Virus record (IMG/VR): IMGVR_UViG_3300020152_000001
Coordinates: 108,766 to 132,731 of that record
DNA: 23,966 bases
Origin: a virus
Lineage: Duplodnaviria > Heunggongvirae > Uroviricota > Caudoviricetes
Reading direction: 5' to 3' (one strand)
The translations under genes were made by a program, and so were the position numbers. Below are positions 1,895 to 23,874 of this stretch, in pieces. Numbering within the stretch: position 1 is the stretch's first letter; each line of letters opens with the position of its first letter. The notes under the pieces were generated by a model. It was not told where the DNA came from and made no database searches. It was given only the letters and a program-made list of their open reading frames with translations.

Positions 1895-2947
1895 TTAGGT
1901 GTCGAGTTTCTTGATGGCGAAGCCGTAGCGGCCCGAAGTGTTGATGATGGTCGGTGACGGCGGGACCGCATACTCGCCGTTGGGGTCGTTGCGCCGCATC
2001 GGGAAGCAAATCCACGTGTCGGCGCCGAACTCGATCTCTTCTCCGGCCGATCGGCCTTTCATCGAGATCAAGCGGATGTCCGGGAGCACGCCCAGCATCG
2101 AGTAGACACTGCTGGAGTCTCCCCACTGACCAATGACCGGCATCGCCATCATGGGGCTGACGCCGTTGAGTGGGTTGGGTCCAAGCGGAAACAGCGTCGA
2201 CATGCCACCGGAGCGAGCGCCCACGGTGAAAGGGCCCGAGTCCTGATCGTTGGCGCGGAAGTAGAGCGGCAGAATCGTGTCGTCTCGGATTTTGGCGCCG
2301 GTGAGCGCACCGTCGACGCGGACGTGTTGGGTCCGGCGGGAGTTTGCGTTCCAGTACGAGAACGGCATGAAATGCTGCTCTTCGTCCCAGTTGACGAAAT
2401 GATCGATGTACGGCGAGCGCCCGTACCAGAGATAGCGCGTGCCCGTGGCGAACGCGCCGCCCGGTGAATAGCTCTGACCTAGTTTGTCGAGATTGCCGAA
2501 GAACAGGTGCGTGAAGTAGCCCCGGTTGCCGTTCTTCAGCGTTTCGATGACGACGTAGATGTATTTCGGGCCGGTGTCCGGAGCGAAGAAATGCACGGAC
2601 TGGAACGGACCCGTGAGGTCGTTCGTGCGGATGTAGCGCTCAGACGACGACGCCGCGACGAGCGAGTCTGGTTGCTGCCACCACTTCAACGTGCCGGTCG
2701 CCGGGACGCCGTTATACCCTGTCGACAGGTGATATTGGAGTTCGGTGTCGATGCGCTCGACGCCGTTGTCATCGTCGACAGTGATGATGTTGCGTCGGAG
2801 ATTGATGTGGCAGGCGTCGTTGCTGAGTTGGAGGAAATTCGGCCACTCGTCGACTTGCAGAGTCCAGCCCTGCGCCACGGCGAACGTGACGATCGCGTCC
2901 TTCAACGCGTCAACAGTATTCAAGGAGACGTTGAGTTCGTAAGCCAC
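1895..2947 (-). CDS. Baseplate virion protein, putative receptor-binding subunit 2 (350 aa)
   Basis: Start reassigned from 3025 to GTG 2947, 1 nt after the upstream TAA. The N-terminus MAYELNVSLNTVDALKDAIVTFAVAQGWT parallels the upstream protein. Confidence 0.7.
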   Translation of the reverse strand: MAYELNVSLNTVDALKDAIVTFAVAQGWTLQVDEWPNFLQLSNDACHINLRRNIITVDDDNGVERIDTELQYHLSTGYNGVPATGTLKWWQQPDSLVAASSSERYIRTNDLTGPFQSVHFFAPDTGPKYIYVVIETLKNGNRGYFTHLFFGNLDKLGQSYSPGGAFATGTRYLWYGRSPYIDHFVNWDEEQHFMPFSYWNANSRRTQHVRVDGALTGAKIRDDTILPLYFRANDQDSGPFTVGARSGGMSTLFPLGPNPLNGVSPMMAMPVIGQWGDSSSVYSMLGVLPDIRLISMKGRSAGEEIEFGADTWICFPMRRNDPNGEYAVPPSPTIINTSGRYGFAIKKLDT

Positions 2948-2948
2948 C

Positions 2949-3860
2949 TTAGGCCTCGCGGATATAGAAGAAGTCCGAGATGCCAGCGCGATTAAGCGTC
3001 TGATAAATCGTGTAGGTGTCAGCACCCACGGTCACGGTGTCGTGGGTGTTGAGAATGGCGTTGTGTCCGAAGAACACGTCTTCAAGGACGCCGAGCACGC
3101 CGGCATTGGGGCCGTCGCCGAAAATGTGGATTGGCCACATTGGATAGAAGTTGTCGTCCTGCGGGACTTCCAGCGGGCGAATGTCGACGTTGAAGAACGA
3201 GTTCGTGATGCCGTTGTATTGAGGCCAGAGATAGTAGGCGCCGTCGTCGAAGTGGGCTTGCGGGGAGTTGCCGGTGCCGTGATTCCAAACCCGCTGCCAG
3301 TCGCCTGACGGCGTCCGAACGTGGGCTGAGTCTTCGCCAGGGCCGCCGATGCCGCGATCTTGCGTCGCCACCGTCGTGTAGCGCTTAATCGACGAGGACG
3401 GAGCGGCCACGAGAAGCGGGTACGGGTATTCCAACGGCGTCGCGAAGGGGTTGAAGAAACCCATGTACGCCGACATCACGAAGGTCGAGATGCGGGCGAT
3501 GACGACGATGCGTCGATTGGAAATGTAGAACGTGTAGTCGATGCTGGCGTTGTCCAGGTTCAAGATAACCTGGGGGCTGACGCCGGGTTGGTTTTCGAAG
3601 TCGAGGCCGCTGGAGTAGTTGATCGCCGCGCGGATGCGCCAGCCATAGAACAGCGTCGTCGTGTCGCCGAAGGTCTTGATTTGCACGAAGACGCCGTCGT
3701 CATCGCTGACGCCGGGGCCTTGGAGAAAGACTACATCTTCGACCTCAGGGTCGGCATCGGAATCGTAGTCGATGACGGTCCAGCCCTCATCAGCGGCTGC
3801 GTCGATGAGGTCGGCCAGGAGGTCTTTGAAGTTGGTGGCGGTGCCGGTGTAGACGGCCAT
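2949..3860 (-). CDS. Baseplate virion protein, putative receptor-binding subunit 1 (303 aa)
   Basis: First gene after the tape measure. N-terminal MAVYTGTATNFKDLL...GWT motif typical of post-TMP structural proteins of YuA/D3112-like phages (recall). Confidence 0.72.
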   Translation of the reverse strand: MAVYTGTATNFKDLLADLIDAAADEGWTVIDYDSDADPEVEDVVFLQGPGVSDDDGVFVQIKTFGDTTTLFYGWRIRAAINYSSGLDFENQPGVSPQVILNLDNASIDYTFYISNRRIVVIARISTFVMSAYMGFFNPFATPLEYPYPLLVAAPSSSIKRYTTVATQDRGIGGPGEDSAHVRTPSGDWQRVWNHGTGNSPQAHFDDGAYYLWPQYNGITNSFFNVDIRPLEVPQDDNFYPMWPIHIFGDGPNAGVLGVLEDVFFGHNAILNTHDTVTVGADTYTIYQTLNRAGISDFFYIREA

Positions 3861-9223: not shown

Positions 9224-11029
9224 TTAGACAGGGGTAGTTGGGGAGAAGCGATCGATCTGGATCATGCAGGCCGTGGCCTGATCGCGGAACGCCGTGAACT
9301 CCATGGTTTCCATGATGTCCTGGTCGATACCGCCCGGGGCCACGGGGTCCGAGGTGATCTTGATCGCGGGCAGTGAGTAGTAATACGTGTTGCCGTCGAG
9401 GTCGGTGAACGACCAGCCAATCGACACGGTGTCATGGTCGATGAAGGCCTCGTACATCTCGAAGTTCTCGAAGTACGCCGTCAGTGTGCCCGTCAGCTGG
9501 AAGCGGCCGGTGCCGATGCCACGCGGGAATTTCGAGCCCACCGCCATTTGGTTGCGGAGGCTGGCGTCGCCTTCGAGGGCGATCGATTGCAGAGCCGTCG
9601 CGAGGCTGACGCCGTTCTTGGTCAGCGAACCGACGTTCGTGGTCGCGTTCATGACCTCGGTGGCCGGAGCCTGGAGGTTCACGTAGCTGCCGCCCACGAG
9701 GAACGGATCATCAGTCGGAGACCGGCGGGTCTCGCGGCCTTGGAACGAAAACGAGCCCGTGACGATCGCGCCCGAGGACACGTCCATTTTCCAGGCGCCG
9801 ACGCGGAGGCCGTCTTGGATCAGGTGCTTGTCGACATCGTTGAACGAGGTCGCGATCGAGGTCGATTGCGCCAGGATGGCGGCCACGTCCCCGGGGTTCC
9901 GGAGCATCGAGCCCTTCACCGTCACCGGGGCACCGGCAGTGGCGTCGGCGGCGATGTTCTCAGCGACAACGATCGCGTCGTTGCCGGCCGAGACAACCGT
10001 GAAGAAGCCGCGAGCGGTCGGAGATGCACCCGTGAAATCGGTGATCGTCGTGTTGCCATCGGCGTCGGCCACTTCCGTGATCGAGCCGTTGACATCGTTC
10101 ATATTGACCAGGGTCACCGTGTCCGTGGCGACGCTGACCTTGAGGTTCAGATTGCCAGCGACAACGTCGGCGAGGATGGCCGCAGCCAGAGCCGCAGCAG
10201 ACGCGTCAGCATCTGCGCCGGGCGTCAGTTCGCCAGGGTCGCCGCCAAACGTATAGGTGATCGGGTCGTTGACGCCGTCGTCGATTTCAATCGAAACCGT
10301 GGTCGCGACTTCGTCGAACTGGATGGAGCCCGTCGCGTAGCCCAGGCCGTTGACGAAAATCTTCTGGCCGGACCTCAGCTGGCCGGTGGCGATGGCCGAC
10401 GTGAAGACGCCCACACCCGCCAGGGTGTTCGTCGCGGCGACAGCAGAGATGCCGGTGTTGTTGAGGACGAAGACATCGTTGGCGTCGAACAGGCGAGCCG
10501 CAGCCGCACCGGCTTCGGCGACGGGCGTGCCGGCGACGCCGGTCACGTCAATATCGGTGTTGCCACCAGTGAAGTTGACAGCGGCGACTTCGGCGTAGGT
10601 GTTGTTGTTCGGGTTCGCGAAGCCTTCGGTCTTGATGCGGCGGCCAACCGTGAAATAGTCGCTGTAGTCGGCGCCGGAGATGCGAAGGGTGTTCGCGTCG
10701 ACCCAGCTCAGGGTCGCGCCCTTCCACTGGTCGAAGCCCATCGGCCGCGTCCACGTGCCCAGCACGAATTGCTGGATGAAGTCGTCTTGGCTGCCGGCCG
10801 AGAACTCGAAGTTCACGTCGCCGCCGGACATCGCCGACACTTCGACGACCGAGGAGACCATGCGGTCGGCGCGGAGTTCGTCAGACGTGACTGTTTCCTT
10901 CGAAGCCGCGAGGCTCGAAGAGGTCAGACGCAGTTCGCGAACAACGCCGGAGGCCGGGGTCTGACCCCAAGCGGACGGGCTCTCGACGATGTAACGCAGA
11001 CTGACGCGGTTTGAGTCGGCAAAGCTCAC
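9224..11029 (-). CDS. Major tail tube protein with inserted decoration domains (601 aa)
   Basis: AGGAGG RBS and GTG start. N-terminal DSNRVSLRYIVE..WGQTP...SDELRADRM...GGDVNFEFS and C-terminal G.F.LTG.LTAYFE...Y..LP.IK...D motifs of the YuA/phiCbK-type tube family (recall). Confidence 0.9.
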   Translation of the reverse strand: MSFADSNRVSLRYIVESPSAWGQTPASGVVRELRLTSSSLAASKETVTSDELRADRMVSSVVEVSAMSGGDVNFEFSAGSQDDFIQQFVLGTWTRPMGFDQWKGATLSWVDANTLRISGADYSDYFTVGRRIKTEGFANPNNNTYAEVAAVNFTGGNTDIDVTGVAGTPVAEAGAAAARLFDANDVFVLNNTGISAVAATNTLAGVGVFTSAIATGQLRSGQKIFVNGLGYATGSIQFDEVATTVSIEIDDGVNDPITYTFGGDPGELTPGADADASAAALAAAILADVVAGNLNLKVSVATDTVTLVNMNDVNGSITEVADADGNTTITDFTGASPTARGFFTVVSAGNDAIVVAENIAADATAGAPVTVKGSMLRNPGDVAAILAQSTSIATSFNDVDKHLIQDGLRVGAWKMDVSSGAIVTGSFSFQGRETRRSPTDDPFLVGGSYVNLQAPATEVMNATTNVGSLTKNGVSLATALQSIALEGDASLRNQMAVGSKFPRGIGTGRFQLTGTLTAYFENFEMYEAFIDHDTVSIGWSFTDLDGNTYYYSLPAIKITSDPVAPGGIDQDIMETMEFTAFRDQATACMIQIDRFSPTTPV

Positions 11030-11097: not shown

Positions 11098-11147
11098 AAA
11101 ATATCGTAAACGTCGCTGGTGTCAATATGGCTAACGGCTCGCGTCAG
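11098..11147 (-). promoter_or_regulatory. Putative promoter P3 with operator half-sites
   Basis: TTGACA (11125-11120), 16 nt, TATTTT. Plus strand TGTCAA-N5-CTAACG-N5-CGTCAG. Confidence 0.5.
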
Positions 11148-11153
11148 ACCAGA

Positions 11154-11582
11154 TTACCCCTCTGGGGCGTGCCGTTCGTCCCGGAAGTAAGGGACCTTGA
11201 CCCCTACCCCAGCGAAGCCTCGGCGATCGGCGGCCGGCGGATAACTGGCGGCCCGGAGCGTCAGCCGGGCTCCGTCTTCGAGCTGGTGGTCTCGTTCCTG
11301 GAAATGCCGGCCGATGCCGTTTGCGACGGTATTCGCCAAGGCGCTGCCTGTGTTCTCGGGCTGATAGACCGTGATTTCCAGGTCGCCCTCCAGGCGCACC
11401 ACGAAGTTAGGTCCGAGGTTGGCGCGGACGGCTCCCGCCTCCTTGATCCTGATGGCGACGAAAGGCCCGTCCGGTTGTTCGAACGGAGCGTTCGTATAGG
11501 CGACGGGGATCGAGGGGTGGTTCGCCGTCATGAAGTCGCGGAGCCGCGTCTCCAGCAACTTGCGTTGGGTTTCAAGAGACAT
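11154..11582 (-). CDS. Tail terminator protein, plain copy (142 aa)
   Basis: Size, position directly before the tail tube, and motifs P.AY.NAPF..P.GPF and G.L.I.VY.PEN.GS fit the tail terminator family. Confidence 0.8.
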   Translation of the reverse strand: MSLETQRKLLETRLRDFMTANHPSIPVAYTNAPFEQPDGPFVAIRIKEAGAVRANLGPNFVVRLEGDLEITVYQPENTGSALANTVANGIGRHFQERDHQLEDGARLTLRAASYPPAADRRGFAGVGVKVPYFRDERHAPEG

Positions 11583-11593
11583 GTCAGTTTGCC

Positions 11594-13567
11594 TTACAGT
11601 TGAGCATACTCGTATTCGATCAGGTAGTTGACCGCGAGCTGATCGCCGGCAGCCCAGCCGTTGGCCCCGGTGAAGTTCAACCAGAAGCCCGTGTCGCCTT
11701 CGGTGATGGTGACGGTGCCGCTATCGGTATTCCGAGTCCGGTTGCGGACGTTGCTGTTGTTGGCGTTCGGATTGTAGACCGTGACTTGTCCAGTGACCCA
11801 CCCGCGAAGTGCGAGCGGGACTTTGTACGGGATGAAGTGGTTCTGTTGCGCCGTGTTCGCGGCGACAGAAGTCATTCCGTGATGCCCTGCTGAGCTGTTG
11901 TTCGCAGGTGTCGTGAACGGTCCAAACGATTTCTGGCAGTACGGAAGACACTGAGCCAGCGACTCTTCATATCGAGCAGGATGCCACATCGCGGGATCAT
12001 ACGAGTCACCGCGCGTGAGAACTTGCTTCGAGATGTCCAGAGTTTCGTCTTGCGCCATCGTGCCTTCGATCCAGACGATTGTAGCCGTCTGATTGACGTT
12101 GGCTGGAGTCACGCCAGACACCTGAAAAGTATTCCAGACGTTTTGCGTGAGCGGAATGGCGCCGGAAACCGCAACGACTTCCCACTGAGCAGCGGTCTTG
12201 AAGAAGTTGCCTTGTGTGAAGGTGGTGCTCGTCCAGTCGAGTACGGGGTCGGAGCCAACACCGTCCCAGACGTTGGTGCCAGTTGATTTGTACGCGAGGA
12301 TGGCACAGCGAAGACTCTGTCCCGCTGCTGAAGGTCGAGCCCGGCCGCCATACACAATCTCTTGGCCGTCACCAATCCAGTTGATGCCGCGCCGATCGAT
12401 CTGAGTTTGCATTTGGCACATGCCAATGCGCTGCGGTGTCCCGCTTGCTTGAATCAGTCGAAAGCAGCAAGCAGCGCCGTCGCCGTCATGCAGGAGCTGT
12501 TCGATCCGCGAGGTCGCTGACTGCGTGAGAATCTTCCAGCGATCGACTGTCATGCGATTGTCGGCACGGTTGGTGCCGCTGTTCATCTGACCATTGCGAC
12601 GTTGGTCGATTAAGCCATCCCAGTTATCGAGATAGTTCGGCGCCGCCCCGCCCCCGCCGCCTGTAGCGGCGTCGGCCCAGCCCACATCTCCGTCGCCGTC
12701 GCTGTTCTTCACAAGAACTTGGCCGGTCGTGCCGCCAACGGGAACGCCTTCGCCGCCGGCAGCGAGAAGCTCCCAATACACGGCGTTCGGTGGTTCTTGA
12801 TTAGAGTGCGTCTGTACGCAGATGTACGAGTCGCCTTGGTGTTCGACGGCATCATCAACTGCATACGCCGTGGCGTCGCTCCATTCACCTTTCCAGTTGA
12901 GGCCCTTGTCACCTTGCGGGCCCTCGTCCCCTTGTGGGCCTTGCTCACCCTGAAGGCCTTGTTCGCCTTGTTCGCCTTGGATGCCTTGCGGACCTTCGGC
13001 GCCGGTATCGCCTTTCGACACCATGAGTTGCCAATCGTCCGGCTGAGACACCGGAACCTGATTGGTGTTCGTCGTCAGCGAAATGTAGGCACTGCCGTTG
13101 TAGTAGACGGTGTCGTTAGGCTCGTACTCGGTGGCGTTGTTCCAGGTACCGCGCCACGTGATGCCTTCTCCTTGCGGACCAGTCGGACCTTGGTCGCCCT
13201 GCGGGCCGGGGATGCCGCCGGGCACCCAACCGCCGTCAGGAGCCCAGAACAAGGTCTTGCCGGGCGTGAGAATGCACTTGTAGAGCTGATAGTCGTCGGC
13301 ATCATCGCGGAAGTAGACTGTAACTTCTATGTCCGCAGTGTCTGCGTTGTAGATGTTGATCGACTTCGTCTGACGCTGAAGCGTACCAGACGCAGGAGGA
13401 GCGATGATCTCCGTGAGTGTGCTTCCATTCAGGAAACCAAACTGCACGCCCGGCACGAAGATACCGTCGCCGATGTCGACGTAGTCACACTGAAAGCGCG
13501 GCTGATGAACTGCCGGCGCTTCAGCGATAGCGGCGTAAATCGCACGAGTGGTCGTAGTCAGGATCAT
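11594..13567 (-). CDS. Fibre protein: N-terminal adaptor domain, collagen, 2 CBM5/12-like repeats, C-terminal putative receptor-binding domain (657 aa)
   Basis: Start reassigned to ATG 13567 (MILTTTTRAI), 2 nt after the upstream TAA. Gly-X-Y runs, W-x-G-x-W..Y..D.V...G..Y...P..W repeats, GGTTGQVLVKNSDGDGDVGW fibre motif, and a C-terminal DQR..G..DRW...E.L..C..Y.QKS pattern of jelly-roll fibre tips. Confidence 0.82.
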   Translation of the reverse strand: MILTTTTRAIYAAIAEAPAVHQPRFQCDYVDIGDGIFVPGVQFGFLNGSTLTEIIAPPASGTLQRQTKSINIYNADTADIEVTVYFRDDADDYQLYKCILTPGKTLFWAPDGGWVPGGIPGPQGDQGPTGPQGEGITWRGTWNNATEYEPNDTVYYNGSAYISLTTNTNQVPVSQPDDWQLMVSKGDTGAEGPQGIQGEQGEQGLQGEQGPQGDEGPQGDKGLNWKGEWSDATAYAVDDAVEHQGDSYICVQTHSNQEPPNAVYWELLAAGGEGVPVGGTTGQVLVKNSDGDGDVGWADAATGGGGGAAPNYLDNWDGLIDQRRNGQMNSGTNRADNRMTVDRWKILTQSATSRIEQLLHDGDGAACCFRLIQASGTPQRIGMCQMQTQIDRRGINWIGDGQEIVYGGRARPSAAGQSLRCAILAYKSTGTNVWDGVGSDPVLDWTSTTFTQGNFFKTAAQWEVVAVSGAIPLTQNVWNTFQVSGVTPANVNQTATIVWIEGTMAQDETLDISKQVLTRGDSYDPAMWHPARYEESLAQCLPYCQKSFGPFTTPANNSSAGHHGMTSVAANTAQQNHFIPYKVPLALRGWVTGQVTVYNPNANNSNVRNRTRNTDSGTVTITEGDTGFWLNFTGANGWAAGDQLAVNYLIEYEYAQL

Positions 13568-13569
13568 GA

Positions 13570-15372
13570 TTAGATGCCGAGTGAGATGCGGGCCATGACG
13601 CCGGCCCAATCCGTTTCTCCGCCGCCACCGCCGCCGGCTTCCGGTTGCGGTACGAAGATTTCCCAGAAGGACGGAGAGACCGCTGGGTTCTGATTGGTGC
13701 TGTTGGCGATGGCGATGAACGTGTCGCCGGTGAAGCTCACGAGATCATCGACGACGTAAGCGACACCGGAATCCCACACGCCGCGCCAGTTTGCGCCCTT
13801 CGGGCCTTGCGGGCCGACCTCGCCTTGTGGGCCCTGTGGTCCGACTTCACCTTGCGAGCCTTGCGGACCTGTGGGGCCGATGCTGCCTTGAGGTCCTTGT
13901 TCGCCTTGCGGACCTTGCTCGCCTTGCAGGCCTTGCTCGCCACGCTGAGCGACAAGCTCCCACTCGGGAGCGCTGCCTGGAGTCTGCGCCGCAGTTACGG
14001 CTTCAGTTGCAAACCACGAACTCCCATTGCGTTCGACGATGTCGTATTGATCGTAGTCTTGTGGGGACCAGGGACCGCGCCACGCGCCGACGCCGGGAGG
14101 ACCTTGCGGGCCTTCATCGCCTTGCTCGCCTTGGATACCTTGCGGGCCGGGATCACCTTGCAGACCTTGAAGGCCTTGCGGGCCTTGTTCGCCTTGCTCG
14201 CCTGCGGCGCCATCCTGACCTTTCGCGGCGACAAGCATCCATACGTCGCCGGCTACAGGTTCCACACCTGAGTTGGCGACGATCGCCACAAACGACTCAC
14301 CTTGATACGAGACGACTTGGCCCTGCGTGTAGAGAGTGCCGCTGTTCCACTCACCAACTGGAGTGAAGCCGACACCTGGAGGGCCTTGCTCGCCGTCGTC
14401 GCCGGTGAATCCTTGCAGACCTTGCGGACCCTGCGGACCTTGCTCGCCATCGACGCCGCGCTGTGCAAACAAATCCCAGTCGCTGGGATTCGAAGGTGGC
14501 GTGTCGCCAACTGTCGTCCGCAGCGCGATATACGAGCTGCCTTGATATTGGACACCATCGCCTTCGACGTAGATGGTGCCACCCTGCCAGAGACCTCGCC
14601 ACACGATGCCGGCGCCAGGAGGACCGTCATCGCCTTGGGGGCCCTGCTCGCCCTGCGGACCCTGGATGCCTTGTGGGCCTTGGAGACCTTGCGGTCCTTG
14701 CGGTCCTTGCGCGCCGGCTTCGCCCGTGTCGCCCTTCTCTCCAGGAGGTCCCTGATCTCCGGTGTCGCCTTTATCGCCTTTGATGGCGACGAGTTTCCAG
14801 AACGGTGAGTCCGGGACTTCCGGACTCTCGCCGACGTTTTGGAAGTTGCAGAAATACGAACTGCCGTTCAGTTGAACGACATCAGTCTCAACGTATTCGA
14901 TCTCAGGGTCCCACGGTCCCTGAAACACCATGCCAGGGTCGCCGGCAGGGCCTTGACCGCCGCGAGACGCCAACAACGACCAAAACGCGCCGCTGATTTC
15001 GGGCACATCTCCGGTCGTCTCTTGCAGTGCGATGTAGGCGCTGCCGTTATTGTGAACGGCATCGTCCTTCACATACGAAGTCGCGCCCGACCACGCGCCG
15101 CGCCAGTTGATGCCGCCGCCGTGCGAAGACTGCTCAAGCGGAAGCCAGTTGATGGGATCGAGCTGACGCAGCTGGTACGGCGTCATGTCTTCTTGCACGA
15201 AGACAATCATGCCTAGGCTGAGACGCAGAGCTGGAATGTTGTCTCGCGCTGCAATCGTCGCGACTTCGCGCCAACCGCCTTTGCCGTAGAGGGCATCGTG
15301 CGTTGCGTAAGAGTCCTCGTCGGTGAACGGGACGACCTTCGCGGCGACGTTGGTTCCTGAGAGCGCCGCCAT
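13570..15372 (-). CDS. Collagen-like fibre with 6 CBM5/12-like repeats and N-terminal A domain (600 aa)
   Basis: Start at ATG 15372 (TAATG overlap). About 60 Gly-X-Y triplets in 5 blocks separating six Trp/Tyr-rich ~50-aa repeats. Confidence 0.88.
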
Positions 15373-16561
15373 TACGCCCACACCACGCTGATGGCGGCGC
15401 CTGTTTGGATGTTGTTGAAGCGGATGACATTGTAGTCTTCGGTGTGACCGCTTGCGTTAGTTAGACTTACGACGGAGACCGTGAAATCAGAGAACGCGAG
15501 GCCGCCAACGGTGACGGAGCTAGGGACGCCGAACGATGCCGGATACGCGTAGTACGGATACCGCCCGCCGCTGGCGTTGTAGGTGATCGCCTTGCCAAAC
15601 GACGTGGCAAACTCGCTGCCGCCGAGCGCAAGAATTTGCGCGTTGTTCAGTGTCGTCAGAGCCGACACGCCCCAATAGCGGCGACGGCGGAAGGCGATGC
15701 TCGTACTCGCTTGCCGAGTTTGCTCGCCGTCAGACATCGTCAGCGTCCAGGTGCGATCGGCGGTGAAGGGCCCGGCTACGGTTTCGCTGCGATCACCGAC
15801 GACGAGATCACCGACACCTTGATTGATCGACTGGCTGACTTCGTCCTTGTTGTACGACCACGAGAGCGTGACATCGGCGACGGAGCTGCCAATCTCCATG
15901 GTGCCGCGATTGTTCGTGAAGCTCGTGATCTGCGGCGGCGTGTAGAACAAGGAATCCAGAGCTTCCTTCACGTTCGTGAAGCCGGCGTTGTTGTAAGCAA
16001 CGTCCTCTGCGTAGGAAGCTCCGCCACCGCCGCCTTCGAACACTTCCCAGGCGTCGACGCCGACTAGCTGATACGCGGTAGAGTCTTCCCGGACGTAGAC
16101 GATCATTCCCGTGGAGCGACGAAGCTCCGGGATGGCATCGCGATCGGCGATGGTGTCGACTTCGCGCCACCCTCCCTTTCCGTATTCGGCGCTGTGCGTT
16201 GGGAATTCGTCAGCGGAGTCGAAAGGAGCGAGCGGTGCGGCGACGTTGGTGCCAGGTATTGCAACCAAGGTTACGCCCACATGACGGAGATTGCGGCCCC
16301 GTGCTGAATGAAGTTGAAGCGCAGAACGTTGTAGTCCTCGCCGTTGATGTTCACGCTTGAAACCGTGAAAGCAGAGAACGCCAAAGAGCCGATCATGACC
16401 GAGGCCGGCACTCCGAACGACGCCGGAATTGCGAAGTACGGATAGCGCCCGCCCGTGCAGTTGTAGATCACGGTCTTCACGAAGCTCGACGCCATCTCTT
16501 CGCCGCCGAGAGCCAGCACGCCATCGGCATCGAGAGACGGAGAAACGGACACGCCCCAGTA
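15169..16561 (-). repeat. Diverged tandem duplication of a ~0.5 kb unit (B domain, stop, A domain) spanning gene boundaries
   Basis: Units 16561-16065 and 15677-15169. Hand alignment: B domains 62/96 identical, A domains 42/63 identical. Both junctions read TGG GCG TAA. Confidence 0.9.
15372..16268 (-). CDS. Fibre adaptor/linker protein A-(Ig-like)-B (298 aa)
   Basis: Start reassigned from 16748 to TTG 16268 ([12 protein letters not shown]), 2 nt after the upstream TAA, by homology with the next gene's start [12 protein letters not shown]. Central beta-rich segment ([21 protein letters not shown]). Confidence 0.8.
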
Positions 16562-17005
16562 AATGGGCTTCAGGCCCGGCAACACGCTGTCGCTCATCTC
16601 GTCGCGATAGTAGTTGCAGCGCATCATCGTCCGAGCGAACCCGCGAGCCACAGGCGCTGGCGGATACGCGAAGGCGCGGAACGTAAGCTTCGCCGTGTCT
16701 GCGAGCTGAAACTTCTGCTCCTGAAACAGCGGCGCGATGCCATCGCACAGCTGAGTCATCAAAACGCTGCCGCTGTTCTCCGGCTGATAGACATCGATTT
16801 GCAGGACGCCGGGATGGCGCACCACGTATCGGGCCCCAAGGTTGGCGCGGAAGCCGTCACCATCCATGAGGTACACGGCGATGAAAGGACCATCCGGCTG
16901 GGAGAACGGCGCATTGAAGAACGCGATCGGCACCAGCGGATAATTTTCCGCCATGAAGTTCTGGACCCTCGCTTCGACGAAGGCGCGTTGGGTCTGGAGC
17001 GACAT
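16271..17005 (-). CDS. Tail terminator paralog fused to a C-terminal B domain (244 aa)
   Basis: Residues 1-136 align ungapped with 11154..11582 (70/136 identical). Residues 149-244 match the C-terminus of the next gene. TAATG-coupled to the neck gene. Confidence 0.85.
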   Translation of the reverse strand: MSLQTQRAFVEARVQNFMAENYPLVPIAFFNAPFSQPDGPFIAVYLMDGDGFRANLGARYVVRHPGVLQIDVYQPENSGSVLMTQLCDGIAPLFQEQKFQLADTAKLTFRAFAYPPAPVARGFARTMMRCNYYRDEMSDSVLPGLKPIYWGVSVSPSLDADGVLALGGEEMASSFVKTVIYNCTGGRYPYFAIPASFGVPASVMIGSLAFSAFTVSSVNINGEDYNVLRFNFIQHGAAISVMWA

Positions 17006-17490
17006 TAGATCGCTCCAGCCTGCATGCGTGCTTCCAATTCCGAGAGCGCGACGCCGATCATACCCATGGGGCTACGCTGACGCAGCGGCGACTCCGGCAG
17101 CTGCCCAGCTTCGAGGCCGGCCCACTGTTCGGAGTTGTTCGACAGGTAGACGACGCGGCCGAAAGTCTTCGACCAATCTATCTCATGAAAGCTGGCGTTC
17201 GCCATGCCTTCGTTGGCGCGGCGGCGAGGTTCGGCTCCGAGCGGCAAGTCATTCGTTCGGCCCGGGCTCGCAGGAGAGTTGATGGGCTCGATGGTGCCGA
17301 CAAACGGAGTGTCCAGCGACCATTGATAGTTGGCGACGGCTTCACCCGTATGCACGGGCGTGCGAGCAAGCGCGCGTTCGTGAATGAAGAAGGCGATGCG
17401 CTCGATGCGATCTGTCATCTCCTTCTTCTTTTCCGGAAGAAAGGACTGCAGATGCTTGGAGAATGCGGCGCGGTTCTGGATGACGCTCAT
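17005..17490 (-). CDS. Neck / tail completion protein, HK97 gp10-like (161 aa)
   Basis: AAGGAGG RBS. Motif ARTPVHTGEAVANYQWS...VYLSNN..Q..GLE.G...Q.P.GM; canonical position. Confidence 0.82.
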   Translation of the reverse strand: MSVIQNRAAFSKHLQSFLPEKKKEMTDRIERIAFFIHERALARTPVHTGEAVANYQWSLDTPFVGTIEPINSPASPGRTNDLPLGAEPRRRANEGMANASFHEIDWSKTFGRVVYLSNNSEQWAGLEAGQLPESPLRQRSPMGMIGVALSELEARMQAGAI

Positions 17491-17502: not shown

Positions 17503-17877
17503 TTAGACTTCGCGGACGTGCAGCATGTGCAGGCTCTCGCCGGGGACGCCGAGAATGCGTTGCACGTTGTAGGTTTTCTCTGCACCGTTGACGGTGGCGA
17601 TGATGCGGTCGTTCTCGTTGGGATTGACGGGCAAATCCTTCGCGGGGATCAGCACCTTCATGTCCGTGGTCACGATGACTTCGCCGTCGAGTTCGTTCAG
17701 GCCAAAGCGAGCGAGCACGCCTTTGACTTCGTGCTCTGCCGTGGTCTCGGTGATGGCTCCGGTTTCGGGATTGTACGCAGGCGCGGTCACCGACACGTAA
17801 GTGATCGTCGGAGCCAAGTCGTCGAGCGTTACGAAGGCATTCGAGACGAGATCGCGGATGAGATCGCGGAACGCCAT
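17503..17877 (-). CDS. Head-tail joining (stopper/closure) protein (124 aa)
   Basis: Motif YNPETG..T...D.KVLIP...P...D.I; lies between adaptor and neck gene. Confidence 0.75.
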   Translation of the reverse strand: MAFRDLIRDLVSNAFVTLDDLAPTITYVSVTAPAYNPETGAITETTAEHEVKGVLARFGLNELDGEVIVTTDMKVLIPAKDLPVNPNENDRIIATVNGAEKTYNVQRILGVPGESLHMLHVREV

Positions 17878-17878
17878 G

Positions 17879-18388
17879 TTACGTCCGCTTGATTGGCTTG
17901 AACCCGTTGCCGCCAGCGATGACGCCTAGGCCACGAAGCAGCGCACCGATCGTCGAGGGGATCACCGGAGCCCGGTAGTATTCGTCGAATTCCAAACGCA
18001 CGACATCAGCTTGCAGAACCTTGAGCCCTTCCTTGCCGGTCTCTTGTGTCCGATCGCGAACCATGAGGAAGCGCGCGAGTTCGCAGACGGCGTTTTTCAG
18101 CGCCGTTGGGATTTCGTTGACGCCGATCGGTGTGCCGTCGACATCCTTGACGTTCGTTCGCGGCCACCGCAGCGGCGAGTCTTCGTCGGTTTTTACGCCG
18201 TACCAAGTCGCCTGGGCGTCGATCTCTCGCGTCGCCCAGATGAGAAGGTTCTCTTTGTTCTCAACCGTCAGCGCCGACCATTGGGCGAAGACGTGGATGT
18301 TTGCCGAGAGATACGCGTCGGCGTAGTCGACATCGACATAGGAATTGGCGCCGTCGACGACGGTGCCGTCTTCCACGACCAAGGCCAT
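17879..18388 (-). CDS. Head-tail adaptor/connector, 'DnaT-like' phage family (169 aa)
   Basis: Start reassigned to ATG 18388 with GGAGG RBS. Motif MALVVEDGT..GANSYVDV..ADAY...L.WPR...IP..LK.A.CELA. Confidence 0.85.
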   Translation of the reverse strand: MALVVEDGTVVDGANSYVDVDYADAYLSANIHVFAQWSALTVENKENLLIWATREIDAQATWYGVKTDEDSPLRWPRTNVKDVDGTPIGVNEIPTALKNAVCELARFLMVRDRTQETGKEGLKVLQADVVRLEFDEYYRAPVIPSTIGALLRGLGVIAGGNGFKPIKRT

Positions 18389-20017: not shown

Positions 20018-20434
20018 CTACCACTTGAAGAAATTCTTCACCGCCGCGAGGATGCCGGTATCGCCGTCTGCGGTCCCGTCGCCGTCGAGATCGTCGGTAC
20101 GGGCGGCTTGAATGCGATCGAGCAGTTGGTTGTAACGTGACGCGATCTCGTCGCGTTCGCCAACCGCTTGCCGAGCGAGGTCTTGCGCTTCCGCGAGCTG
20201 GGACCGAACGGTCGTGAGTGTGGTGTTCAGCGCATCGAACTTCTTCAAGACCTCCATGTTGATCTCTTGCGAGATCACTGAGAGATCGAATCCCTCAGCT
20301 AGGGCTTGCTTGACGTTAAGTGTGCGCTGCCGCAGCGGGTCCTCAACCTGCGCCACCGTGATCTGATACGCCGGAGCTTCGGCGTCGTTTGGGGAACGGC
20401 CGCGATATAGAAACTCGTAGAGAAACTCAGCCAT
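20018..20434 (-). CDS. Fibre-associated coiled-coil protein, possible assembly chaperone (138 aa)
   Basis: Start reassigned to ATG 20434 (TAATG-coupled to the fibre gene). Heptad-like LNTTLTTVRSQLAEAQDLARQAVGERDEIASRYNQLLDRI. Confidence 0.7.
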   Translation of the reverse strand: MAEFLYEFLYRGRSPNDAEAPAYQITVAQVEDPLRQRTLNVKQALAEGFDLSVISQEINMEVLKKFDALNTTLTTVRSQLAEAQDLARQAVGERDEIASRYNQLLDRIQAARTDDLDGDGTADGDTGILAAVKNFFKW

Positions 20435-23400
20435 TAGAGAACCCTGTAAGAAAATTGGAAGGAGATGAATTGCGCTGACGTGTTGGCGGAACACATGACC
20501 ATTTCCGCACGATCGTTGGTGGTCTCGCCGTAAACACGAACACCCGGAGACACAGAACCAGTGGCCGAAGCCGTGGCACCTGAACCCAAGAGATCAGTGT
20601 ACGCCGCCAAGTTGGACGCGATCGGTAGCGAGACGCCCCATTCGGTAAGAGCACCCGTTCCCGTCGTAGGATCGATTTGCACGGTGCCACTCACATGTAC
20701 GCGCGAGCCGCGACGTTCATAGAAGCAGACATCGGCAACCGAAGACGCGACGTTTCCAACGCCGGTGATCGTCGGCGTGTACGTGCCTTCGATGTTCGCG
20801 GTAGTGGCATCGAGGACCCAGTTCGTGCCGTCGTAGACGAACTCCGCGCTGCCGGTTGACCCCGAAGGAAAAACCAACAAGTCAGTGCCATTGTGATTGT
20901 CGACGGTCAAAGAGAACGCGCCGCCGCCGGTACGGACAACGCGAACACGCATGCCGAAATGCGCTTGACCCGTGTTGGCAAGGGTGATGACTCGGTTAGC
21001 AGTGAGCGTGCCAACCATTTCGATGACGTTGCCGTAAACGAGCGCCGACCACGAAAGATCGGCATCTCCCATTTGAGTGATGCCTTGGTCTCCCCAGCGA
21101 CGCCACTTTCCTGAAGCCGCATCAGATACGAGCTGGCCGTGTCCCGTGGCGTTGCTGGAGCCCATGCCGCCGAGATCGCTGACGGTGATGATTTCCCCGC
21201 CGGCTCCAGCTGTCGGTAGGGTCGCTATCGTGTAGATGCGTGGACGCAGAGGCACGCCGGCTGCGACGTGAGTCGGTGCGATTTGCAGATGCGTCGTCGT
21301 AGCGGAGTCGCACGAAATCGACAGGACGCGGGTATTATCTGCCATCATGCGGACACGTTCCGCATTACTGGCGTTCATGAAGAAGACGTAGGCGGGGTTC
21401 GTGCCAGAACCCCAAGCCGCGAAGGCGCCGTAGCCGCTGCCACCCCTAGAGTTGATGATCGAAGCACCGGCGGTATTTGTGGCATCGATGACGTTTTGCG
21501 ACGTGGTGCTAATTGTGATCGCACCTGACAGAAACGCAGCGAAGCCGCTGTCATCGGCAAGACGTGCATGCACAGCTGCGCCACTGGCTTTAATAGCGGG
21601 CGACGCGCTGGTGATCCCGCCGAGAGCCAGGAACGGGCCCACCATCCAGCTTCGAGTTGCAAGGTCGATACGCCAAGCCGTGCTTTCGAATGCATCAGCG
21701 GACGTGTGAACGAAGCCAGACAGAACGTCAGCGGTGGCGCCCACTAGGAATTTGCGGTTTGCGCCGCTGCCCCAACGGAGATACGTGTTCTCCGCCATGT
21801 TAAGCGCGGTGCTGCCGGAATTCGTGAACGTGTGCAGGCCCGTGAACGCGTTGCCGGTCAGAACGGCGACGCGGGCATTGTTCTCGTAGAGCTGACCGAA
21901 GTTGAGGGTATTGTTACCCTTATCTCCGCCGGTGGCGCTGGGATGATACACACCACCGCCGACGTTCAACCGCCGGCCTGAAGAGCCAGCGACATACGTG
22001 TCCATACCCCATGCGGAGTCTTCGCTCCCGTCAGTTGGGTCTATGATGTAGCCAGATAGCACACCGTACTGGACGGCGTTGCCTCCGCTGTCTCGACCCC
22101 AAACCGCGAGGCCGCCGAGTTGGTCGCTGGCGGCTGGAGACGCGCTGTTGTGGAATACCTGAAAGAACGGGCCCACGTTGCTGTCGTTCGATCGGATCAA
22201 CGACATCGGATACGTGGTGTCGGCGGTGATCGTTTGCGCGCCCGTGATCGTGTTCGCGCCTAGTGTGGCTACACGGACGTTGGCTTCGTAGATTTGTCCG
22301 AAGTTGATGGTGTTGTCGCCTTTGTCTCCGCCGGTGACAGTCGGGTGATAGAGCCCGGCGTCAATGCGAAGGCGAACGCTGGCGCTGCCGGCCACCATGG
22401 TCTCGAAGGCCCAGCGAGCATCTTCACTGCCATCGGTTGGATCGATGAGAGTCGCGAACAGCCGCAAGTAGCTGGTGAGATTGCCGCCGCTATCGTTGCC
22501 CTGCACTGCGAGAGCAAACAGGGAGTCTGAAGCAGCTGGCGACGCACTCAGATGCTGGGTGACCAGTTGCGGCCCGTTTGTTCCGTCGTCGCTGCGGCGA
22601 AGTATCAGCGGCGTTAGGCCCGCGCTGATGACTTGCTGCGCGGTGAAGACGTTCGCATCGTCCAGGCCGGCGATGCCCGCGTTTGATCGAAACAATGCCA
22701 ACGTCGACTGAGCCAGCGCCGTCTGCAGGCCCGAGATGATGTTGAGCTTTGCCGGCGTGATGATGTTGTCGGCAAATGCGCCAAGCGCCAGTTGCCCGAA
22801 ACCCAGAGACGTACCGCTGCGGCGCAGAACGTATCCATCGGTGCCCGCAGTGATAGCGTGTGGTGCCGCCGTAGCATTGCTGTTGTTGCCGATGACGGAC
22901 AGAGCGGCGACGTGGGCCATCTGAGCAAAGTCGACGGCGTCGTCAGCGATCATCGCCTGAGTGATCTGGCGGAAAGCCACGGTGCTGCCGTCGTAGGAAA
23001 CGGCGCCGACAGTGCTGGCGGCGATGAGTTCTGGATTTCCGCCAGTGGAACTGCGGCCGAGAACACCACGAGAGCCCAGGACTGCTAGCATCGAAAGCTC
23101 GACGGAGCTGGCCTTGATGCCGAGCGAAACGGTGCCGGCTCCATCGTTGTAAGTGGCGTCAATGGTGTCGCTATCGACAATCATCGAGCCTACGGCATCC
23201 TGGACGCCTTCGAGGAAGTCCGTGATTTGCGAAGTCGTGTGAGTGTGAACCGCAGGCGCGGCACCGACATCCTCATAGTCGAGTTCGACGACTCCGATCT
23301 GGCCGTTCACAGTGGAAACGGCGTCGGTGGTGTCCGACTTTTCCCAGACACTGTCGGAGTTGAGGATTGCATAGTCGCCGACTTCGAAGTCGATGGTGCC

Positions 23401-23874
23401 GCTGCCTAGGTCCTGAAACCCGGCAACGCTCACGCGATAAACATCGCCCGGAGTCCCCACTCCATCGGTGAGAGCTGGTGAGTTGGCGTCCGCGTCCCAG
23501 ACGCCGCGATAGCGGAAGGCCCCTACCGTCAGCTGGGACGCGGGGATACGGCCGTTGCCGTCAAGGGTAGCGACGCCGTTGTTGGCGCCCAACAATGCAA
23601 GCGGAATCGCTCCCTGGTCCTCTGCGGACGGGAGTTGAGCAAGCGGCACCAATCCATCATCGTCGAGTTCAGCGACGCCGTTGGCTGTACCTTTTTGCGA
23701 TGTCGGGATTGCGCCAATGGCCGTGGCCGTCAGCAGAGTCAGCACGAAGTCGTAGACGCGTTGCAGCGTCATTCGCTTCGACAGGCCAGCAGACGTATCA
23801 ACGACCGCGACGATGTCGTCGGCGGCCGGCGTCTCTGCTAGTTCAGGGAGCTGGGTGAATTTCTTAGTCGCCAC
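20434..23874 (-). CDS. Large modular phage fibre protein (1146 aa)
   Basis: Fibre motifs: N-terminal KKFTQLP, two GVA.LD..G..P..QL repeats, G.WDA..N.P.L..G.G..GD.Y.V..AG domain, VSTVNGQIGVVEL, HTH metal motif, internal repeats, TLTANRVITL..YDGTNW domain, C-terminal EGTYTPT..Y.R.G..VHV knob. Confidence 0.85.
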   Translation of the reverse strand: MATKKFTQLPELAETPAADDIVAVVDTSAGLSKRMTLQRVYDFVLTLLTATAIGAIPTSQKGTANGVAELDDDGLVPLAQLPSAEDQGAIPLALLGANNGVATLDGNGRIPASQLTVGAFRYRGVWDADANSPALTDGVGTPGDVYRVSVAGFQDLGSGTIDFEVGDYAILNSDSVWEKSDTTDAVSTVNGQIGVVELDYEDVGAAPAVHTHTTSQITDFLEGVQDAVGSMIVDSDTIDATYNDGAGTVSLGIKASSVELSMLAVLGSRGVLGRSSTGGNPELIAASTVGAVSYDGSTVAFRQITQAMIADDAVDFAQMAHVAALSVIGNNSNATAAPHAITAGTDGYVLRRSGTSLGFGQLALGAFADNIITPAKLNIISGLQTALAQSTLALFRSNAGIAGLDDANVFTAQQVISAGLTPLILRRSDDGTNGPQLVTQHLSASPAASDSLFALAVQGNDSGGNLTSYLRLFATLIDPTDGSEDARWAFETMVAGSASVRLRIDAGLYHPTVTGGDKGDNTINFGQIYEANVRVATLGANTITGAQTITADTTYPMSLIRSNDSNVGPFFQVFHNSASPAASDQLGGLAVWGRDSGGNAVQYGVLSGYIIDPTDGSEDSAWGMDTYVAGSSGRRLNVGGGVYHPSATGGDKGNNTLNFGQLYENNARVAVLTGNAFTGLHTFTNSGSTALNMAENTYLRWGSGANRKFLVGATADVLSGFVHTSADAFESTAWRIDLATRSWMVGPFLALGGITSASPAIKASGAAVHARLADDSGFAAFLSGAITISTTSQNVIDATNTAGASIINSRGGSGYGAFAAWGSGTNPAYVFFMNASNAERVRMMADNTRVLSISCDSATTTHLQIAPTHVAAGVPLRPRIYTIATLPTAGAGGEIITVSDLGGMGSSNATGHGQLVSDAASGKWRRWGDQGITQMGDADLSWSALVYGNVIEMVGTLTANRVITLANTGQAHFGMRVRVVRTGGGAFSLTVDNHNGTDLLVFPSGSTGSAEFVYDGTNWVLDATTANIEGTYTPTITGVGNVASSVADVCFYERRGSRVHVSGTVQIDPTTGTGALTEWGVSLPIASNLAAYTDLLGSGATASATGSVSPGVRVYGETTNDRAEMVMCSANTSAQFISFQFSYRVL
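21853..22653 (-). repeat. Tandem ~134-aa domain duplication inside the fibre gene
   Basis: SASPAASD..G.DSGGN..IDPTDGSED..YHP..TGGDKG.NT.NFGQ.YE.N.RVA occurs twice, 402 nt apart. Confidence 0.9.

Follow-up and report, generated by a model that had tools for sequence, protein, structure and literature searches.

Two tail terminator genes flanking a fibre cassette, and a recurrent gene pairing that may mark fibre attachment sites, in an uncultured long-tailed phage

Gene order and the two terminator copies

We analysed the last 24 kb (23,966 nucleotides, hereafter the window) of the 132.7-kb IMG/VR virus record IMGVR_UViG_3300020152_000001, which has direct terminal repeats and represents an uncultured long-tailed phage, and focused on its neck-tail operon, where two copies of a tail terminator gene, T1 and T2, flank a cassette of fibre genes. 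The minus strand carries every gene of the window. In the order of transcription, they encode PhoH, the head-tail adaptor Ad1, the head closure protein or stopper Hc1, a Neck1/tail completion protein, T1-B (the first terminator copy fused to a C-terminal domain called B), a linker fibre protein composed of the domains N, X and B (N-X-B), a fibre in which an N domain is followed by collagen and CBM_5_12 parts (the N-collagen/CBM_5_12 fibre), a second collagen/CBM fibre, T2, the tail tube protein, chaperones and the tape measure protein. The operon genes are close-set and their stop and start codons overlap.

The T1-B gene (16271..17005) encodes 244 amino acids (aa). Its terminator domain, T1, occupies residues 1-138 (16592..17005), and the rest of the gene (16271..16591) comprises a linker (residues 139-147), B (about residues 146-244, the span of its profile hidden Markov model, HMM) and the stop codon. 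T2 (11154..11582, 142 aa) is a plain copy that adjoins the tube gene. The first 138 residues of T1-B matched PF13554 (Phage_tail_terminator_5) with 32 bits and T2 matched it with 37.7 bits, both above the cut-off of 27, and both copies hit the tail terminator family phrog_179 (E 4e-18 and 1e-16, respectively). BLASTP aligned T1 with T2 at 70 identities over 136 positions without gaps (E 1e-51), the same count as in an earlier reading of this DNA made without database searches (the sequence-only reading). The AlphaFold2 (AF2) model of T1-B has a predicted local distance difference test (pLDDT) of 94 overall; the value falls to 79-85 in the linker and exceeds 93 in B. The T1 domain of the model superposes on the terminators of FCWL1 (chain D) and phage T1 with a template modelling (TM) score of 0.74 and a root-mean-square deviation (rmsd) of 3.6, and it also matches the terminator structures of lambda gpU and T5 p142. 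A terminator gene is expected between the genes for Neck1/tail completion and the tube; in the window, T1 comes after Neck1 and T2 before the tube. Both copies are tail terminators, by HMM in the two cases and by fold for T1, as that reading had proposed for the domain they share.

With the known PF13554 terminators (lambda gpU, T5 p142, T1 and FCWL1) the two copies have in common the family HMM and the position between tail completion and tube genes, and T1 also has their fold. They differ in that two paralogs are retained, in four phages, and that one of them bears an extra C-terminal beta-sandwich. To our knowledge, the siphophages described so far have one terminator gene. A retained pair of terminator paralogs, a terminator with a fibre-type domain and the pairing of B with N described below were all absent from Pfam, from PDB (searched by sequence) and from the literature searched. 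The paper on the T5 terminator mentions extra domains only for terminators of contractile systems (PMC11784142). A pair kept in four phages challenges the view that a single gene supplies a single homohexameric ring, and T1 and T2 provide a test case for the sub-functionalisation of ring proteins.

History of the duplication and selection on both copies

A scan of IMG/VR with the tube protein recovered 70 related loci, whose genes we assigned with home-made HMMs. The order PhoH-Ad1-Hc1-Neck1-T-tube with a single terminator gene (T) was present in about 50 of them and is shared by Microcystis phage Mwe-JY26. The nearest relative (L007/L008) shares T1-B, N-X-B, the two fibres, T2 and the tube. 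The next nearest, L009 and L011, carry two plain terminators, T1 and T2, separated by 5 nucleotides (nt), with no fibre genes. Identity of the tube protein to that of the window is 89% in L008 and 75% in L009 and L011. A peptide-pattern scan of IMG/VR using T1-B alone gave no match, nor did megablast of the region against cultured phages. In all, paired terminator paralogs were found in four phages, and the cassette in the window and L007/L008.

In a maximum-likelihood tree, the eight terminators of the window, L008, L009 and L011 formed one clade (98/94). Within it, T1 of all four phages grouped together (96/84) and T2 of the same four formed the sister clade (98/94). Because each of these two clades holds all four phages, a single tandem duplication probably preceded their split. 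On the simplest reading, the duplication would be older than the fibre cassette, the alternative being that L009 and L011 lost both the cassette and B. The sequence-only reading had treated the fused paralog and the cassette as one system. The paralogs proved real, but the plain tandem T1-T2 of L009 and L011 speaks against a duplication that arose together with the cassette. Since these two phages keep the pair without fibre genes, it appears to have a role independent of fibres.

We computed the ratio of nonsynonymous to synonymous substitution rates (dN/dS) by the Nei-Gojobori method between the window and L007. The values were 0.16 for T1, 0.27 for B, 0.13 for T2 and 0.14 for the tube, and between L009 and L011 they were 0.26 for T1 and 0.39 for T2. 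Both copies thus appear to be maintained whether the cassette is present or absent. This comparison had been proposed as a check in the sequence-only reading; purifying selection on both copies, together with their PF13554 and phrog_179 matches, upholds its statement that two intact terminator genes flank the fibre cassette. The T1-B fusion itself is kept in the second phage at 73% identity and without frameshifts.

Two intact copies could also serve as alternative terminators, one per virion or depending on conditions, so that fibre-bearing and fibre-less particles would be produced as host-range bet hedging. T1 and T2 are both full-length and about equally distant from single-copy outgroups, so each could cap the tube alone, and the clade-specific residues comprise one fixed T1/T2 difference, without a clear sequence signature of sub-functionalisation. 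We nevertheless regard this explanation as quite unlikely, as L009 and L011 retain both plain copies under purifying selection with no cassette, which argues for non-redundant roles, and translational coupling links the genes within one operon.

Regarding the junction between terminator and tube genes, other lineages carry unrelated insertions there, including beta-helix and hydrolase-like proteins, which suggests a hot spot for insertion. The insertions in L032 (6880-9806), L036 (6755-9804) and L041 (4999-9805) consist of one or two proteins of ~570 aa and one of ~350 aa, and those in L028 (9237-9884), L031 (7397-8029), L037 (7827-8423) and L043 (3211-3963) of a ~200-aa protein whose C-terminal part includes a hydrophobic stretch. 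The single terminator gene of L022 (335-767) is broken into two open reading frames, perhaps by a frameshift or through an error in sequencing.

Cassette fibres and the pairing of B with N

The three genes between the terminator copies are all of fibre type, in agreement with the sequence-only reading. N-X-B (15372..16280) consists of N (about residues 5-78), the FN3-like domain X (86-198) and B (199-302), and its start is GTG at 16280 or, as in the L007 ortholog, TTG at 16268. The N-collagen/CBM_5_12 fibre (13570..15372, about 600 aa) begins with the ATG at 15372, which overlaps the N-X-B stop codon (TAATG), and matched Collagen (E 6e-28), CBM_5_12 (E 4e-27) and the tail fiber family phrog_5073 (E 5e-117). 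Its N domain is homologous to that of N-X-B (52%, E 2e-25). The second collagen/CBM fibre (11594..13567, 657 aa) starts with neither N nor any recognised domain. Its first 180 aa are 73-88% identical to L007 and the remainder 12-38%; such a conserved start with a divergent rest is typical of a swapped receptor-binding region, and the hypervariable C-terminal two thirds are likely to bind the receptor. A further fibre-like protein of 1146 aa is encoded at 20434-23874, upstream of PhoH and outside the neck-tail operon. It has an internal repeat of ~110 aa and matches to the tail-protein families phrog_13892 and phrog_31460.

Residues 149-244 of T1-B aligned with the last 101 residues of N-X-B (62/101, E 2e-38), which bears out the earlier remark on a second B at the C-terminus of the following protein. 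In the AF2 model of N-X-B, residues 90-302 form two beta-sandwiches with pLDDT above 93. The first, X, is FN3-like by structure comparison (Z 8.7, rmsd 2.4-3.0). The X-B model aligns to tandem Ig domains (E 7e-5) and its best solved matches are generic Ig/FN3 proteins; B, the second sandwich, had no specific solved relative when searched as part of X-B. Folds like X-B are frequent among uncharacterised viral fibre proteins. We found at least 202 X-B homologs, all unnamed and none with a Pfam match, and a Pfam search of B and X at E 0.1 returned nothing, including from the Ig, FN3 and Big families. X-B stood at the C-terminus in 116 of 122 retrieved proteins, behind highly diverse N-termini, and a direct fusion of B to a terminator was found only in the window and L007 among these 122. 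B forms the final beta-sandwich of a C-terminal fibre module that is widespread and unannotated, so the idea that it is peculiar to this system had to be dropped. N is likewise common, with 2377 representative clusters, and nearly always occupies residues 2-80 of proteins of 83 to 1839 aa, as expected of an anchoring domain. Sequence searches of PDB with X-B, with N and with a protein that combines a head-tail joining domain with B gave no match.

The junction at which B ends at a stop codon and N begins at the next start is present twice in the window, ~899 nt apart. Such a repeat is expected from tandem duplication followed by deletion, and the fusion point of T1-B coincides with the X|B domain boundary, so that the fusion might have arisen incidentally, and without a function, when recombination brought in or reshuffled the cassette. 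We consider this highly improbable, given that the second phage has kept the fusion free of frameshifts at 73% identity with dN/dS of 0.16-0.27 and that both domains of T1-B are confidently folded in the model.

In searches seeded with X-B, the gene after a B-ending gene started with N in Tunturiibacter phage Tunturi_5 (gp28/gp29), Bacteroides phage SJC03 (gp81/gp82) and the loci L079 and L080, and this succession was present in 13 of 16 distinct IMG/VR loci; counted from B overall, the pairing held in 17 of 20. We also searched IMG/VR from the other side, seeding with N and blind to B, and counted a B-ending gene if it lay at most 200 nt upstream. Such a gene preceded 50 of the 69 N genes, and a wider B profile added 14 more (64/69). 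The genome of the window phage contains exactly two N and two B domains. L142 and L147 likewise contain daisy chains, [..B][N..B][N..], and a metagenomic protein of 1438 aa, P0158, has B (381-485), N (504-577), B (789-893) and N (912-985) in a single chain, which looks like a fused version of the same arrangement. Moreover, distances among N domains correlated with those among the upstream B domains (r 0.77-0.88), versus r 0.41-0.47 with the rest of N's own fibre, relatedness being uncontrolled in both values. The recurrent gene order across unrelated phages favours the docking-like character that the sequence-only reading had given to B, and B may bind N physically. A complex predicted for T1-B residues 138-244 and residues 1-85 of N, with an alignment supplied for each partner, received a score of 0.00, which we count neither for nor against binding.

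The main rival explanation takes B on T1 as an Ig/FN3-like surface decoration that adheres weakly to cell-surface sugars, a role also suggested for Ig-like domains of other phage structural proteins. The fibres would then attach elsewhere, e.g. at the tail tip, and the cassette would lie where it does since the junction tolerates insertions. The tandem beta-sandwiches of X-B with their generic Ig/FN3 matches agree with this, and so do the unrelated insertions between terminator and tube genes in other lineages. Ig-like decorations of phage structural proteins are, moreover, well known, as reportedly described by Fraser et al. in 2006. B resembles them as a small beta-sandwich that extends a structural protein at its C-terminal end; it differs in having no Pfam Ig, FN3 or Big match, and a strict pairing with N is not known for them. 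A decoration leaves unexplained why a B-ending gene stands immediately before 64 of 69 N genes, why the genome has two B and two N, and why B and N are fused in P0158 and diverge together. We think it unlikely.

Two further occurrences of these domains were noted. In L078 (6001-6954), the X-B protein P0027 belongs to a small island that also encodes an integrase, a VapE-like primase and a resolvase, beside bacterial genes and with no N-fibre gene after P0027; the island might be a satellite that provides a socket or adaptor for the fibres of a helper phage. The cultured T5-like phages Vibrio phage pVp-1 (gp75/gp76; L183, 2462-7568) and Achelous (gp143/gp144; L184, 1916-7547) each have two large tandem genes of unassigned function, the second of which begins with N. 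Achelous gp143 ends in a diverged B (iE 8e-5), and pVp-1 gp75 has no B match, its C-terminus being similar by eye.

Neck proteins as carriers of B and a model of fibre attachment

The B-ending genes upstream of N genes encode 57 distinct carriers. Because 35 of them combine the head-tail joining protein PF25138 with B, a neck ring protein is the commonest predicted home of B. These proteins have ~230 aa, with PF25138 in the first ~125 residues (E 1e-20 to 1e-29) followed by B without X, and their genes lie behind those for capsid and cement proteins and ahead of an N-collagen fibre gene. Hc1 of the window (17503..17877, 124 aa), which has no B, matched phrog_161 (E 2e-15) and weakly PF25138, and an HMM built from it and its orthologs hit 25 of the 35. 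T1-B has the same layout on another neck protein: a neck ring protein, B without X, and then a gene starting with N. The carrier in the PF25138 fusions is a stopper-type protein and not a terminator paralog, and these fusions are likewise uncharacterised. The prevalence of neck proteins among the carriers is consistent with the anchoring of fibres at the head-tail junction through the fused copy, as put forward in the sequence-only reading, and would place T1-B in the neck of the virion.

We favour, with moderate confidence, a model in which B is a socket, N is the plug and T1-B sets a socket at the terminator level of the neck. T1 and T2 derive from an old tandem duplication, and T1, in this lineage, has gained the C-terminal beta-sandwich B on a short flexible linker. 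B would serve as the socket for the conserved N of one class of phage fibres. With T1-B in the terminator ring atop the tail tube, B would be exposed outside the neck, N-X-B would plug in through its N and present a second B, and either socket could receive the long collagen/CBM fibre. The outcome would be a daisy-chained or branched set of fibres at the head-tail junction. T1 and T2 may share a mixed ring or form stacked ones.

A broader version, which we put forward only tentatively, holds that B and N are a portable plug-and-socket pair very widely distributed in tailed phages. Any virion protein that acquires B, be it a stopper, a terminator paralog or a fibre tip, would recruit N-fibres, and uncultured phages would often have fibres anchored at the neck. 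In the clade of the window phage, T1 and T2 would form a heteromeric ring whose composition fixes the number of sockets per virion.

Several points weigh against a socket at the neck. In a FastTree phylogeny of B (103 columns), the B of T1 sits on a long branch among B of the X-B type, away from the neighbouring B. It may therefore have another origin (local duplication or import) and another precise function than its neighbour. B is found mostly at the C-terminus of fibres, in many of them the distal receptor-binding end, and could be an adhesin. The adjacency and co-divergence of B and N could be explained by co-inheritance alone, and the sample of loci contains many relatives. Stoichiometry is also a concern for a socket borne on a ring, fibres being trimers and terminator rings hexamers.

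In principle, both neck appendages and the chaining of fibres have precedents. Branched or chained fibres are formed by LtfA/LtfB of DT57C, gp63.1/gp66 of G7C and the tailspikes of CBA120, with attachment at the tail tip or collar. There too, the genes are adjacent and one protein offers a site for the N-terminus of the next; the likeness is one of layout, and attachment in those phages is not on a terminator, unlike in the model for T1-B. The whiskers of T4 (fibritin on gp13/gp14), the collar appendages of phi29 and the neck passage structure of lactococcal phages place fibres or carbohydrate-binding modules at the head-tail junction (see also PMC6669499). Their proteins are unrelated to those described here, and none is anchored via a domain fused to a terminator paralog. 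According to the literature, the head fibres of RcGTA attach to capsid pentons and not to the neck. In the literature searched, we found no siphophage whose terminator or stopper bears neck or collar fibres in this arrangement. Our results point to a putative class of fibres carried at the neck by stoppers or terminators, one largely overlooked in structural studies of cultured phages. If B is the socket for N, their pairing would give a sequence rule that predicts the attachment site of a large unannotated class of fibres. Such a rule would also show fibre chaining or swapping and bear on host-range prediction and the modular design of laboratory phages.

As for the remaining genes of the operon, Ad1 (17879..18388), the first neck gene, matched PF20557 DnaT_2 (E 2e-34) and phrog_477 (E 5e-39), and a terminator-like hairpin (18440-18421) lies immediately upstream of it. 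The Neck1/tail completion protein (17005..17490, 161 aa) matched phrog_169 (E 3e-6), and its position is kept in ~50 related loci. The tail tube protein (9224..11029, 601 aa) matched PF18906 Phage_tube_2 (E 1e-30) and phrog_290 and has one solved relative, 8xan (3 chains). A pseudo-hexameric trimeric tube, as in T5, might give a reason for two terminator positions; an hhalign self-comparison of the tube core detected no internal repeat. Between T2 and the tube gene, a gap of 124 nt contains a sigma-70-like site (11098-11125, minus strand; TTGACA-16 nt-TATTTT); a promoter scan of 12.6 kb found 1 sigma-70-like match against 2.5 expected by chance, which is not significant. Downstream of the tube, together with the chaperones, is the gene for the tape measure protein (1429 aa), after which two adjacent paralogous genes (1895-3025 and 2949-3860) matched the structural protein family phrog_687 (E 9e-32 and 1e-50).

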